DNA of 64,000 nucleotides from a virus (lineage: Duplodnaviria > Caudoviricetes). Shown piece after piece: positions 2,121 through 6,360 of this stretch. How positions within the stretch are numbered: position 1 is the first letter of the stretch; the number at the start of each line of letters is the position of its first letter. The position numbers were made by a program, and so were the translations under genes. The notes beneath the pieces are model-generated. The model ran no database searches, had not been told where the DNA came from, and saw nothing but the letters and a program-made list of their open reading frames with translations. The stretch is taken from IMG/VR virus record IMGVR_UViG_3300028593_000003. The stretch is one strand, 5' to 3'.

Positions 2121-2900
2121 TTATTTGACTTCCTCGTCTTTTGTGGTCTGAAAGTGCGTTTGAAAAAATTTCTTTTTCTCTTCTTTCTCCTCTTCTCCAT
2201 AAAAACCATCTATTGGTTTTCCATAGAAGTTTGCGGAATATCCCTTTCCGGATTTGATGTCGGCCATATATGATTTTGTAGCGTTGGTCAATGTCACATT
2301 ATACAAACCATTGGCCATTGCACGATTATCAAATTTGTAAGTATTGGAAAGAAACATATCCATTTCTTCTTGGATTTTTTCCGGTTCTGTTCCATAATAA
2401 GTGATTGTCCATCTCTCCGTTTTTTGTAAATCGGAGATCCTTCCCCTGATTTGAGAGAGATTGTATATTCTGGAAGCATTTTCCTGACCGTCTGTGATGA
2501 TGTTTACAAGGAAAGATGTGGTTTTCTCTTCGACATCAGGAAGTTCTTGAAGTTTCGTAAGTGTTTTTCCAATGGCATCGAACAATGCTGTATTTCCATC
2601 TGGAATGTACTCTTTCATATCCAGAGGATTTATATCGGATATACTGTCATCCCATCTCAAGAAATTGATTTTATCGGGATAACTGAAAGTAACAATACTT
2701 ACCTTTGTATCAAGTTGGTCATCCGTTTCGCTTTTGAGGACTTCAAGTTGGTCATTGAAAATGTCCACAACAAACTTCCTCAATACACCCATTGAACCGG
2801 AACTGTCAATTATAAAAGCAACGTGAAGTGTCTTTTTCTTTTTACTGAAAATATCATCTTCAAAATCTTGGAACATTTTGTCTATTTCTTTATCACTCAT
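2121..2900 (-). CDS. von Willebrand factor A (VWA) domain protein
   Basis: MIDAS motif IIDSSGSM, GNTALFDAI, IITDGQENAS. Confidence 0.9.
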   Translation of the reverse strand: MSDKEIDKMFQDFEDDIFSKKKKTLHVAFIIDSSGSMGVLRKFVVDIFNDQLEVLKSETDDQLDTKVSIVTFSYPDKINFLRWDDSISDINPLDMKEYIPDGNTALFDAIGKTLTKLQELPDVEEKTTSFLVNIITDGQENASRIYNLSQIRGRISDLQKTERWTITYYGTEPEKIQEEMDMFLSNTYKFDNRAMANGLYNVTLTNATKSYMADIKSGKGYSANFYGKPIDGFYGEEEKEEKKKFFQTHFQTTKDEEVK

Positions 2901-3109
2901 TATTCATTCTCCTGTATCAATTCATCAACATCAATAGGTAATCGGTCAAGAATATCTCTCAATTTACCCAATTCTGTAAGTGCCTCATCCCTTTCCTTCT
3001 CTGCTTTCGCAAGTCGGGTAGTAAGATAACAAATGGAACAGTTTTCGGGGTCATGGTCAAGCCCGTGGATATGACATCTAATTTTTGTCTCTGCCAATGA
3101 TTCACTCAT
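2900..3109 (-). CDS. Small hypothetical protein (CxxH...CxxC plus coiled coil)
   Basis: 69-aa ORF, translationally coupled to both neighbours. Confidence 0.6.
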   Translation of the reverse strand: MSESLAETKIRCHIHGLDHDPENCSICYLTTRLAKAEKERDEALTELGKLRDILDRLPIDVDELIQENE

Positions 3110-3969
3110 CCTTCCATCTCCTTTTTTATTACCTCTGCCGCATATTCCATCTTGAACTCTGGATAGAACTTGTCTATCCTGTCATAAATGTGAGCTATGT
3201 ATCCGAGATACACATAATCGTAACTTGAAGTGACAAAAATCATATCACTCAAATTCCTGATTATTGTATCGGAAAACAGAGCGTGGTAGTAACGATGTTC
3301 TTCCGGTAATAATATTATAACATTGTTTTCAAGGATTGTAAAGATGTCAGGATTGAGATATCCTATAGAATAGTCACGGGTTGAACCCAATAAAACCGTA
3401 CATTTCATATCGGAATATTTGATATTCTTGTCAAAAACGACATTCAGGTTGGTATATTCATCCACCTTTTCTTTCGAAATGTTCGAATAATCCGAGTATT
3501 TTGTTGAAGAAGTGGGGTAATTCTTGCCAAATTCCACCAAATACTTCTCAAAAGAGCCCAGTTTATCGAAAATAATACCCTTAAAACCGATTGTAAGGGG
3601 TCGCGGCTCGACTTTATTTAGCTTTAGGGTATCTATCGAGTGTATTTTGGGGCAGTAGTGGGGAAAATAGTGAAAATCGGGCCTGTAATTGACGGCCGGC
3701 TCAAACAAAGACACATTGTATTTCTTTAGCCAGCGGGCTTCATCAGGTCTTATCGCAAGAAATTTGTCAAAAATAATGACACGGGTTTTTTTCTTGAGAT
3801 AAAACTTGAGAACTTCAGTTTGAAGTGCGAAAGGTTTCGGATTTGAGGGATTGTAGGGGATGTATTCAATATAAACGGCGTCACAATCAGAAAAATCGGT
3901 ATCTGATAAGGTGACGCCGTTCAATACTTTGTTAAAAACTGGACTACAGTTTAAGGTAAACAATGTCAT
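3106..3969 (-). CDS. GT-B fold glycosyltransferase-like protein, possibly related to T4 DNA beta-glucosyltransferase
   Basis: The C-terminal TVLLGSTRDYSIGYLNPDIFTILENNVIILLPEEH resembles the nucleotide-sugar-binding segment of T4 BGT as I recall it. The match is distant. Confidence 0.4.
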   Translation of the reverse strand: MTLFTLNCSPVFNKVLNGVTLSDTDFSDCDAVYIEYIPYNPSNPKPFALQTEVLKFYLKKKTRVIIFDKFLAIRPDEARWLKKYNVSLFEPAVNYRPDFHYFPHYCPKIHSIDTLKLNKVEPRPLTIGFKGIIFDKLGSFEKYLVEFGKNYPTSSTKYSDYSNISKEKVDEYTNLNVVFDKNIKYSDMKCTVLLGSTRDYSIGYLNPDIFTILENNVIILLPEEHRYYHALFSDTIIRNLSDMIFVTSSYDYVYLGYIAHIYDRIDKFYPEFKMEYAAEVIKKEMEG

Positions 3970-5302
3970 TATGGATATTTTTTACAAACTCCTTTTCATA
4001 CTCTATGATGTAGGAGACTACCGCTTCGGAGAAGCCGTCAATATGAACCCAATCACCATAACCCACACCATTACGGTATGAAGCCACATTGATGAGGTAA
4101 TACTGTGCTTCTGGCAGTTTGTTTGGGATCTCGTCGTGAATTTGTTCATCGGTGATGACGATCAGACGATCAAACTTCTCCCTTTCAACAATCGCTTTGA
4201 TTGCTCTACCGAGCCAAGTTCCACCGTGAGGCTGAGAACGAGAAATAGCATTGGCCAAATTAAATCCACGGTGAGCATCGGCAATTTTTCTCACATCTGT
4301 AGAGAATGAGTACACGGAAACATCCTCACAGATTTCTCTTGCGATGAGAGCAACACCATTAGCGGCGTCAATCCTCGTCATATCGGACTTGTCAGAAAGA
4401 GCCATATCCATAGAACCGGAAACATCCACAAGAATTATTGTCTTACCTTCCAAGGTGTCAAGGTTCCTGATGGACTTGAACATCAGGGTTTCAAGCTGGT
4501 TCTTGAACTTTGGAGCATATTTTACTGCCGCAATAAATCTGAAAGGGAGAACCCTGTCAGTTTTCATATTTTCAAGACCACGAAGAATGATGTTCTCATC
4601 CACATTTGCCTGGGTCATATTACGAAGGTTCCTCAAGAGTGCCAGAGCACCAAGGCGGTTCTCCATAATAAGCTCTTCCCAAACAGCTTTCTTGTCCTTA
4701 CCGGCAGAAAGCCCCGTTTCCCAAGTTTTTGGGATTTCCAATTTGTTGTCAATAAGTTTCTTCCAGACATCAGCCTGTGAAGCATTGAGAGGTTTCGCGT
4801 GAGAAAGAAAAAGAACATCTCTCAATTTTACCGAATAGTCACGGTTATATTTGGCGAGCTGGTACTCGTCAAATTTCGTGAAGGCTTTAGCCAGACCTTT
4901 CTTTACCTGTGCGGCAAGAGGGGTCTTACCATCTTTCCAGTAGAGAGAAAGGAACTCCGCCAACTCGTCAGGACGCTGGATTATCCTTCCCAATGTCTTT
5001 GCCACATATTTCCTATGGTCAATATGGCGTACCATTCCCGTAACAAGAAGAAGAGGAACGTGACGCAAATTCATCCTCTCTCTTGCCTCGACAGCAAGAT
5101 TTGCCACGGTCTTACCATTGACTTGTGGAATAGTTGCGAGTATCCTGTCTGCAACGGATGCTCCGTCCTCATAAAAGGACTTTTCCCAAAGCAAGCAGGA
5201 CATCGTTGAACGTCTGAGGATTTGCTCAGGTGTGAGAACCTTTGCAGAACCACCCTCATAGGTTTTAGGAACACGGTTTTTGAAGGAATTATATTTCGCC
5301 AT
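3944..5302 (-). CDS. rsr: Ro60/Rsr TROVE-domain RNA-binding protein
   Basis: TYEGG, SCLLWEKSFYE, LRHVP, QRPDEL, FDEYQLAKYNR, LRDVLFLSHAKP, TWET, ALLRNLRN, VLPFRF, and a C-terminal VWA (DVSGSM, GGT, ITDEQ). AGGAGG RBS at 5311-5316. Confidence 0.97.
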   Translation of the reverse strand: MAKYNSFKNRVPKTYEGGSAKVLTPEQILRRSTMSCLLWEKSFYEDGASVADRILATIPQVNGKTVANLAVEARERMNLRHVPLLLVTGMVRHIDHRKYVAKTLGRIIQRPDELAEFLSLYWKDGKTPLAAQVKKGLAKAFTKFDEYQLAKYNRDYSVKLRDVLFLSHAKPLNASQADVWKKLIDNKLEIPKTWETGLSAGKDKKAVWEELIMENRLGALALLRNLRNMTQANVDENIILRGLENMKTDRVLPFRFIAAVKYAPKFKNQLETLMFKSIRNLDTLEGKTIILVDVSGSMDMALSDKSDMTRIDAANGVALIAREICEDVSVYSFSTDVRKIADAHRGFNLANAISRSQPHGGTWLGRAIKAIVEREKFDRLIVITDEQIHDEIPNKLPEAQYYLINVASYRNGVGYGDWVHIDGFSEAVVSYIIEYEKEFVKNIHNDIVYLKL

Positions 5303-5331
5303 TCTACCAACCTCCTACAAATTATTTTTAA

Positions 5332-5433
5332 ATAACGGGGAACTTGCGAAACCGGAAATTCGGTGGACTTTCACCACCGTGTCGTTGATCACCTAGCATG
5401 GTCGAAGTAACCGACTTCTATCGCCACCGTTAT
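5332..5433 (-). ncRNA. Y RNA-like ncRNA unit 1 (102 nt, small cargo with hairpin CGGUGG-UGAAAGU-CCACCG)
   Basis: Terminal stem AUAACGG/CCGUUAU, conserved GGUGGCG and GUUCCCC, upper stem GAAGUCGG/CCGGUUUC, then UUACUUCG. Adjacent to rsr. Confidence 0.8.
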
Positions 5434-5442
5434 ATTCTGAAA

Positions 5443-5579
5443 AGCGGGGAACAGCCAAACAGAGACTTATATATCCATTTGCTCTGCCATTGAGCTACCG
5501 TCCATTTGGGTTGGACGGGTTAGAATCGAACTAACAACCTAATGGTTCCGACGAAGTAACTCTATTTTACGCCACCGCT
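5443..5579 (-). ncRNA. yrlA: YrlA-type Y RNA unit 2 (circularly permuted tRNA mimic)
   Basis: Same scaffold. Cargo is CCAUU, T-arm GUUAG-UUCGAUU-CUAAC, loop-closed acceptor stem CCGUCCA/UGGACGG, UA, D-arm GCUC-AAUGGCA-GAGC, AAUGG. This T-acceptor-D order is that of YrlA. Confidence 0.92.
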
Positions 5580-5588
5580 CATATTCGA

Positions 5589-5725
5589 ATGTTGGGGAAC
5601 AATTGTAAACGGCTCTTTTAGGGGTGTTTTCTTCTTCTGGAAAAAACCAATCGAATATTCAGCCCCTCGTTTTCAATTTAGGGAAATTGATTAACCGAAG
5701 TATCCGAATACCGCACCACCAACAT
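5589..5725 (-). ncRNA. Y RNA-like ncRNA unit 3 (137 nt, non-tRNA cargo)
   Basis: Terminal stem AUGUUGG/CCAACAU, GGUGGUG, upper stem GUAUUCGG/CCGUUUAC, AUACUUCG, GUUCCCC. Internal UCAAUUU/AAAUUGA and AGGGG/CCCCU helices. Confidence 0.8.
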
Positions 5726-5734
5726 AAATTTTCA

Positions 5735-5987
5735 TTCATCGGGGAACAGATGGAAATGGGGTGGGGATTAGCAATCCCCGAAAGAACATTTACCTCATCC
5801 TGTTCTTCCCACACCGTAAAAGGAACTACTTGCCCAATTTATTTTGTTCCTGTATGTGAGAACGGCTCCAATGAGGGCTTCGGCCCGTAAAGGTCGAATG
5901 TCTGAGCCGCACCATAACCGTGATTATGGTTCGGGCACCCATAATAGTCATCTGTACGAAGTAACCACTTCCGACGCCACCGATGAA
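5735..5987 (-). ncRNA. Y RNA-like ncRNA unit 4 (253 nt, large multi-hairpin cargo)
   Basis: Terminal stem UUCAUCGG/CCGAUGAA, GGUGGCG, upper stem GGAAGUGG/CCAUUUCC, UUACUUCG, GUUCCCC, and at least six internal helices. Confidence 0.8.
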
Positions 5988-6006
5988 AATATCAAAGAAC
6001 TATGTT

Positions 6007-6035
6007 ATAATAACATATTTACTTATAAATGTAAA
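6007..6035 (-). promoter_or_regulatory. Sigma70-type (early) promoter for the Y RNA array and rsr operon
   Basis: TTTACA-17 nt-TATTAT with an extended -10 TG, about 20 nt upstream of unit 4. Confidence 0.75.
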
Positions 6036-6039
6036 CAAA

Positions 6040-6360
6040 TTATTTTCTTTTCAATGAAGATTTCTTGGATTTTTCTTCAACTGCCTGTTTTTCTTCAGTT
6101 ATTGGTGCGCCCACCTTCTCGTCAGAGGTTTTTGTACCTACTGTTTTGTCAACAATCCAGTATCTTACCTCGTCAGATATGGCGTCCACTCTTGAAGCCA
6201 GACCGGAAGAAATAACCCGATGATTTGGGCCTACCCTTCTTATAAGGGTGTTTATAGCCTCTTCGTGTGACCACGAAACGACAAAGGCCGTCCACATTGA
6301 CATATCACGGAGTAATTCGTATTCAATACGAAATACCGACATATTTTTCTTCTCACCCAT
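6040..6360 (-). CDS. Hypothetical protein
   Basis: 106-aa ORF in operon context. Confidence 0.65.
   Translation of the reverse strand: MGEKKNMSVFRIEYELLRDMSMWTAFVVSWSHEEAINTLIRRVGPNHRVISSGLASRVDAISDEVRYWIVDKTVGTKTSDEKVGAPITEEKQAVEEKSKKSSLKRK

Follow-up and report, generated by a model that had tools for sequence, protein, structure and literature searches.

A large, probably pseudoknotted RNA domain in a phage Y-RNA-like unit upstream of a Ro60 gene

We analysed a 64,000-nt stretch of phage DNA (IMG/VR record IMGVR_UViG_3300028593_000003; Duplodnaviria, Caudoviricetes; hereafter the window) and describe an insert of about 197 nt, here called the cargo, that is carried on the minus strand by the first of four Y-RNA-like units (unit 4) upstream of the gene for a phage Rsr/Ro60 protein. 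The cargo is a real and novel structured RNA domain within a known kind of RNA: its genomic context is that of a Y RNA array, it belongs to the minus strand, its fold and core sequence prove to be under selection on comparison with a relative, and it matches no known family. That this stretch is the cargo of Y RNA unit 4 had been claimed in a reading made by a model from the letters alone (the sequence-only reading), and is borne out by the scaffold that unit 4 has in common with the other units and by an Rsr gene with TROVE and vWA domains that lies downstream on the same strand, 433 nt from the 3' end of the unit (5735) to the Rsr start (5302).

Y RNAs are thought to act as adaptors, with the variable end of the RNA setting what Ro60 tethers. 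Bacterial Y RNAs are built of modules: every bacterium examined has two or more, including a tRNA-like one and one with a small loop, and a single precursor encoded upstream of rsr is processed to give them (PMC4201824). The Ro60 protein of phage phiLo binds two upstream Yrl RNAs and assembles with the host PNPase (PMC12135203), and the modules published for bacterial and phage Y RNAs are either tRNA-like or small-loop (PMC4201824; PMC12135203). A module of 197 nt that is under selection and probably doubly pseudoknotted would show that the Ro60 scaffold can bear far more elaborate RNA domains, and the cargo provides a concrete handle on what phage Ro60 particles act on.

The interval 5303-6039 is a gap without a credible gene, flanked by two minus-strand open reading frames (ORFs). 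On that strand, between the promoter and Rsr, it holds four Y-RNA-like units built on one scaffold (direct-repeat families D1-D5 and inverted repeat I7), which runs in the order terminal stem, GGUGGYG head, 8-bp second stem, WUACUUCG, insert, return of the second stem, UGUUCCCC and return of the terminal stem. The closing stem, GGUGGCG head, 8-bp second stem, UUACUUCG and UGUUCCCC tail of unit 4 (Table 1; numbered along the minus strand such that position n is window position 5988-n) are common to its three neighbours, and unit 2 partly matches the tRNA-like core of YrlA (5477-5543, minus strand; 33.7 bits, E 2.3e-5, below the gathering score). The 452-aa protein encoded downstream is an Rsr/Ro60 orthologue that matches Pfam TROVE (E 5e-23), VWA_2 and vWA_Ro60 as well as PHROG 850 ('RNA-binding protein', E 1e-51), and by analogy it is presumed to be the protein partner of unit 4.

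Rsr homologues number in the thousands, only two of which are close, at 82% (L017) and 80% identity, the next standing at ~60%. The DNA of two relatives, L017 and L018, was recovered from metagenomes and has a promoter and array upstream of Rsr as in the window, with the same promoter hexamers at the same position. L017 holds a full homologue of unit 4 (L017:575-832) with a cargo of 201 nt; the cargo of L018 is reduced to ~95 nt and its central core is gone. The second stem (5965-5972/5752-5759) is fully paired (8/8) in both the window and L017, with one G-U replaced by A-U, and the ends of unit 4 pair as an interrupted stem of 8 bp, 2 bp and 8 bp that is identical or compensated in L017.

Selection on the fold and core of the cargo

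The full-length comparison consists of two sequences, the window cargo and that of L017, on which covariance model R1 scores 228 bits and 237 bits (L017:606-806), respectively. Hairpin Ha has four of its seven pairs changed on both sides (three to four across counts), none changed on one side and none broken. Helix S4 shows three double and four single changes among nine pairs, S5 three double and no single changes among six, and hairpin He two double changes (one to two across counts) and one single change among the six pairs compared, with no broken pair in any of the three. The long-range pairing PK1 exchanges one G-U for A-U in L017, where it grows to 8 bp. S1, S2, S3 and the small hairpin 5875-78/5883-86 are unchanged in L017 and are therefore neither tested nor contradicted by covariation. 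Counted helix by helix, the 47 pairs comprise 12 double changes, 8 single changes and 1 broken pair, as against 1-2 double changes and 26-33 broken pairs in controls where the partner strand was slid by 1-3 nt. When pairs were counted on a model-fitted alignment, with S1 and PK1 entered as pseudoknots, 55/55 pairs were kept in both sequences, 10 of them changed on both sides; sliding by 1-3 columns left 0-2 double changes and 40-61% pairing, and none of 500 shuffles did as well.

All seven helices and both loop complements that the sequence-only reading had listed are present in the window at the coordinates it gave, and the compensatory changes whose absence from homologues it had named as the result that would count against it are found in L017 (the 10 double changes among 55 kept pairs). 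Its helices did not all fare alike, as Ha, S4, S5, He and PK1 are kept in L017 with changes whereas the helix at 5782-88/5801-07 (Hd) loses two of its seven pairs. Hd is unlikely to be conserved as a helix; what is conserved at its 3' strand, AAAUGUUCUUUC, is the sequence.

Conservation of sequence is most evident in the core at 5863-5910, which is identical to L017 at 46 of 48 nt (96%), whereas the third codon positions of Rsr are 59% identical (62% when counted at residues whose codons are mostly four-fold degenerate). The UCACGG loop of Ha, the AAUAAA and UUGGGCA of the apical loop and CAGGAUGAGG are also conserved between the two. At the level of sequence, these comparisons establish that the fold and the core are under selection on the minus strand. 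Roughly eight G-U pairs in the conserved helices turn into A-C mismatches if read on the plus strand and, with the scaffold motifs, the promoter and the Rsr gene, they assign the RNA to the minus strand, in agreement with the strand that had been claimed from G-U pairs at the outset. The C-UUCG-G loop that had been noticed on the plus strand (GGGC-UUCG-GCCC) is real, but it is the sole plus-strand feature. Folding energy is not significant for the window cargo (z = -1.31, equalled by 19 of 200 shuffles), with z-scores of -2.33 for the L017 cargo, -2.47 for the whole of unit 4 and -4.23 for the plus strand of the unit. Folding energy by itself is insufficient. The case for the fold rests on the comparison with relatives.

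Several features suggest that the cargo is probably a doubly pseudoknotted RNA domain. S5 is capped by a 19-nt loop that bears the 3' strand of PK1 (5831-5837), and since the covarying arm at 5806-62 and the pairing of this conserved loop with 5931-37 are not both nestable, at least one pseudoknot is likely, as had been anticipated. S1 and S3 are mutually knotted as well: RNAalifold nests S3 around the arm, the earlier reading had nested S1, and the alternative nested models differ by a few kcal/mol in both sequences. The 4-bp GGGC/GCCC hairpin at 5875-78/5883-86 clashes with CCUCAU (5871-76) over 2 nt, a clash that the S2 hairpin avoids. We infer that both pseudoknots form simultaneously. In such a fold, S3, S4 and S5 would make up a long arm that serves as the backbone. 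The 5' half of the cargo would clamp this arm at its apical loop (through PK1) and at its internal loop (through S1); Ha and He would be two additional hairpins and a conserved single-stranded pyrimidine-rich tract a further part, giving perhaps a compact body that exposes invariant unpaired nucleotides (the UCACGG loop, AAUAAA, AAAUGUUCUUUC and the 48-nt core). Minimum-free-energy folds of the window and L017 cargos choose the nested PK1 and exclude S4/S5, which makes a conformational switch an alternative to a static pseudoknot. In L017, GAUGAGGAAAU occurs twice in tandem (L017:755-790, plus strand) and S4 and S3 have the same 3' strand sequence, so that either 5' strand could pair with either copy, a hint of duplication origin or of alternative pairing.

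The cargo remained unrecognised, as had been claimed. Rfam at the gathering score gave no cargo match over the whole window, and Rfam 15 at E up to 10 over 5200-6100 gave no family matching unit 4 (5735-5987); the L017 homologue had no match at E up to 5 and the L018 array none matching the cargo. The library includes models of rRNA, tmRNA, RNase P, SRP, 6S, ribozymes and riboswitches, none of which match, and the YrlA model (RF02553) finds unit 2 only, below its gathering score, leaving unit 4 unmatched. Neither a mobile repeat nor an Rfam match, either of which the sequence-only reading would have taken as refuting it, was found for the cargo, which occurs as one copy in the window. Short resemblances were set aside on inspection. 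Neither a 5S-like CCGAAC nor a UAUGG receptor half is conserved in L017; a T-loop-like UUCGA is conserved there but has no surrounding T-arm stem; and a possible cargo-scaffold stem, in which CAGAUG from the 5' end of the cargo would join CAUCUG of the scaffold tail, pairs in the window and not in L017 and was taken as chance.

Table 1. Features of the cargo, of unit 4 and of the surrounding locus in window coordinates; paired strands are separated by a slash and written 5' strand first where the sequence of both is given.
Feature	Position	Strand	Basis or remark
Cargo domain, 196-197 nt, insert of unit 4	5761-5956	-	covariance model R1
Hairpin Ha, 7-bp stem, invariant UCACGG loop (5918-5923)	5911-5930 (5911-17/5924-30)	-	double changes, none broken
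PK1, 5' strand UGCCCGA with UUGGGCA	5931-5937 with 5831-5837	-	7 bp in window, 8 bp in L017
PK1 extension, 4 bp, UAYU/AGUA	5943-5946/5827-5830	-	
Nearly invariant 48-nt core: S1, hairpin S2, 5' strand of S3	5863-5910 (unit positions 78-125)	-	46/48 identical to L017
S1, GGCUC/GAGCC	5904-5909/5863-5868	-	invariant
Hairpin S2, UUCGACCU/GGGCCGAA	5891-5898/5879-5886	-	invariant; alternative to 5875-78/5883-86
S3, CCCUCAU/AUGAGGG, 7 bp; 3' strand in GGAUGAGG region	5870-5876/5793-5799	-	invariant
Long arm: S4 (5854-5862/5806-5814), S5 (5846-5851/5821-5826)	5806-5862	-	covarying pairs
Helix Hd of the sequence-only reading	5801-5807/5782-5788	-	2/7 pairs broken in L017
Hairpin He, 7-bp stem, 3-nt loop	5763-5779 (5763-69/5773-79)	-	kept in L017 and L018 with differing sequences
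Y-RNA-like unit 4, 253 nt, first of four	5735-5987	-	terminal stem and scaffold motifs in common with units 1-3
Terminal stem of unit 4, 8 bp	5980-5987/5735-5742	-	inverted repeat I7
Scaffold 5' half: GGUGGCG head, second stem 5' strand (5965-5972), conserved UUACUUCG (5957-5964)	5957-5981	-	direct-repeat families D3-D5
Scaffold 3' half: second stem 3' strand (5752-5759), UGUUCCCC tail	5743-5759	-	direct-repeat families D1/D2
Units 3, 2 and 1 of the array; unit 2 with YrlA-type tRNA-like module	5332-5725	-	repeats, partial YrlA match
Sigma-70-like promoter: TTTACA, 17-nt spacer, TATTAT, TG before the -10	6007-6035	-	~20 nt upstream of unit 4
Phage Rsr/Ro60 gene, 452 aa, TROVE and vWA	3944-5302	-	Pfam, PHROG matches
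106-aa ORF	6040-6360	-	upstream border of array gap

Possible roles of the cargo

We favour the view, to which we give about an even chance, that unit 4 is a phage Y RNA with a Ro60-docked cargo domain that binds a partner. Transcription of the minus strand from the promoter at 6035-6007 would yield a precursor with unit 4 as the first of four Y RNAs, followed by the Rsr mRNA. By analogy with YrlA, YrlB and Yrn1, the paired ends and the GGUGGCG...UGUUCCCC helix may be where the phage Ro60 ring docks. The 197-nt domain would replace the small loop or tRNA-like module usual in Y RNAs and could offer a specific surface through which a partner, a host or phage protein or an RNA, is tethered to Ro60 and its associated nuclease machinery during infection. 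We infer the binding of Ro60 from these analogies, and with it the processing of the precursor and the presence of a binding partner. That Y RNA modules serve as adaptors (Yrn1 with PNPase, YrlA as a tRNA mimic, phiLo Yrl with PNPase) makes a partner-binding domain the best supported function, and the rarity of the cargo (two intact copies and one decayed), together with the fast turnover of cargos, suggests an accessory function in an arms race.

Several observations weigh against a partner-binding cargo docked on Ro60. In nested folding, the window cargo is no more stable than its shuffles (z = -1.31). There are two full sequences only, between which S1, S2 and S3 are invariant and thus escape a test by covariation, and the pseudoknots are supported by conservation plus one consistent change. 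The GNCGAAN0-1G-type Ro motif is only approximated in unit 4 (GGCGUCGGAAG), as it is in L017 (GGCGCAGGAAAUG) and other relatives (GGCGUAGA, GGCGAAGA or GGUGAAGA). Finally, L018, which is the closest relative of L017, is without the core, and adjacent cargos change quickly, so that the module is dispensable for a phage lineage; its loss from L018 marks the cargo as accessory.

The least unlikely of the alternatives, though one we still doubt, is that the cargo imitates a structured host RNA, or serves as a decoy for one, and absorbs a host nuclease or defence factor or recruits an RNA-binding protein. Unit 2 in the same array is a tRNA mimic, and a Ro60-like phage protein has been reported to counteract a defence system (PMC11482910), yet the Rfam models of rRNA, tmRNA, RNase P, SRP and 6S do not match the cargo, and an rRNA mimic sought by local similarity gave only chance 8-11-mers against the complete 16S-23S-5S region of one Bacteroidota genome. 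ARAGORN found no tRNA or tmRNA in unit 4, and the cargo has no GTTCRA or AGCTYA motif (the T-arm and D-arm signatures). These tests covered local sequence and motifs, and a rearranged or purely three-dimensional mimic would be compatible with them. Improbable, too, is an autonomous RNA riding on the Ro60 particle, a new ribozyme (self-cleaving or processing) or a ligand aptamer or protein sensor that controls array maturation or access to Ro60, with the PK1 and S4/S5 topologies switching the state of the Y RNA. Its size, its two likely pseudoknots and its invariant core between covarying stems are typical of such RNAs, the minimum-free-energy folds of both sequences prefer nested PK1 to S4/S5 with the two conformations energetically close, and the cargo is the first element past the promoter. 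However, the ribozyme and riboswitch families of Rfam give no match even with E relaxed to 10, no terminator or element sequestering a ribosome-binding site follows unit 4, the domain sits inside a Y scaffold rather than in a leader, and units 1-3 and the arrays of ~100 other loci have the same organisation without such a domain. If true, a sensor or ribozyme cargo would let the phage direct or gate Ro60 and nuclease against a host target or defence system.

A further reading is a hitch-hiking or decaying insertion, a structured piece of another element lodged in a Y RNA loop without a role in the Ro60 particle, which we regard as improbable and place below both a decoy and an autonomous RNA. 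The cargo was lost in L018, the unit 3 cargo measures 83, 16 and 25 nt among close relatives, L018 has acquired a different insert of ~200 nt elsewhere in its array, and homing endonuclease genes lie nearby. A passive insertion would not be expected to have a core that is 96% identical against ~59% at neutral sites or four helices in which every changed pair still pairs; the window holds the cargo only once, no match to a repeat or mobile element turned up, and its partner motifs decay in L018 after deletion of the core, suggesting that selection maintains the intact module. Hardly credible, finally, is that the signal stems from a plus-strand antisense RNA with the C-UUCG-G hairpin or from a gene for a small protein. 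On the plus strand the unit does fold with the better z-score (-4.23) and GGGC-UUCG-GCCC is readable, and mechanical ORFs overlap the region, but the ~8 G-U pairs of the conserved helices are mismatched there, the promoter, scaffold, YrlA match and Rsr gene are all on the minus strand, and stops interrupt all six frames in both homologues, whose indels (1, 3, 2 and 1 nt) are not all multiples of three.

Distribution, cargo turnover and neighbouring genes

Searches with nhmmer and model R1 over 93 Rsr-linked loci (460 kb) recovered only the cargos of the window and L017 and the decayed copy of L018, in which the partner motifs, including both strands of PK1, have decayed (UUUGGGC to UUUAGGU, for example). 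Four pattern scans of IMG/VR gave no genuine cargo homologue; their single candidate, L104, falls within a coding region, with a score of 9.8 bits. blastn against GenBank phages left the cargo unmatched, and 401 sampled Bacteroidota genomes returned only chance matches of 22-30 nt. 

The sequence-only reading had called the cargo large for a Y RNA. This agrees with a crude motif-and-pairing scan of ~100 Rsr loci in which the inserts of ~130 plausible Y units fall mainly into two size classes, 11-25 nt and 76-94 nt, of which the longer is tRNA-like. Genuine long inserts that are not tRNA-like are rare, examples being those of L083 (158 nt), L095 (102 nt), the window (197 nt) and L017 (201 nt). 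The Y unit of L083 (L083:4435-4655, plus strand; Rsr 33% identical) carries a different, multi-hairpin non-tRNA cargo (z = -3.0) and is directly followed by a phage tmRNA (78 bits) and a tRNA (L083:4656-4992, plus strand); in the same locus, another unit has a tRNA-like module whose acceptor-like loop apparently contains a small, complete Y unit (L083:4132-4330, plus strand).

Other cargos of the array differ among the close relatives too. That of unit 3 is 83 nt in the window (unit at 5589-5725, minus strand), 16 nt in L017 (L017:842-907) and 25 nt in L018 (L018:1951-2025), with the scaffold kept. L018 has in addition a structured insert of ~190 nt between units 2 and 1 (L018:2190-2375, plus strand; z = -3.75) with a GAUGGUGUAG-like head and a UCCCC tail, which has no match in Rfam, does not match the unit 4 cargo and could be a divergent Y-like unit, the fifth of its array; as a paralogue of the cargo it was rejected, its alignment with the cargo being unconvincing.

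The window contains the tailed-phage genes for tail sheath, baseplate wedge, large terminase and portal. Downstream of its Rsr gene, at 2121-3109 and 783-1382 on the minus strand, lie a second VWA protein (2121-2900, 259 aa, PHROG 7371), a 69-aa gene and a GIY-YIG-type homing endonuclease. All three are missing from L018; with this single comparison and a truncated L017, nothing firm follows. In L017 a related homing endonuclease comes immediately after Rsr.

Comparison with known Y RNAs and phage RNAs

Among phage RNAs, GOLLD and ROOL (Rfam) resemble the cargo in being phage-encoded, highly structured and without a known partner. They are, however, several-fold larger and free-standing, whereas the cargo sits in a putative Ro60-docking scaffold and has no Rfam match. 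Parallels are also found among Y RNAs. YrlA (RF02553; PMC4201824) and unit 4 both lie just upstream of rsr on the same strand, in positions to be co-transcribed with other Y RNAs, and both have a long stem formed by the paired ends and a variable domain at the end of the stem; the G-rich GNCGAA-type 5' motif of YrlA has an approximate counterpart in unit 4. Unit 4 differs in having no T-arm, D-arm or acceptor-like stem and no match to YrlA or tRNA models, and its module of ~197 nt is probably pseudoknotted, compared with ~80-90 nt for that of YrlA. YrlB and Yrn2 (PMC4201824) are, like unit 4, Y RNAs without tRNA likeness that have the presumed docking stem in common with it and stand in an operon with a tRNA-like Y RNA; these are small-loop RNAs, whereas unit 4 has a large multi-helix domain.

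Functional precedents are Yrn1 of Deinococcus radiodurans and Yrl1/Yrl2 of Thermus phage phiLo, in which a Y RNA module tethers Ro60 to PNPase (PMC12135203). The phiLo phage and the phage of the window both have Y RNAs upstream of the Ro60 gene. The effector-binding regions of Yrn1 and the phiLo Yrl RNAs are loops and short stem-loops, whereas unit 4 would present a probably pseudoknotted domain of 200 nt.
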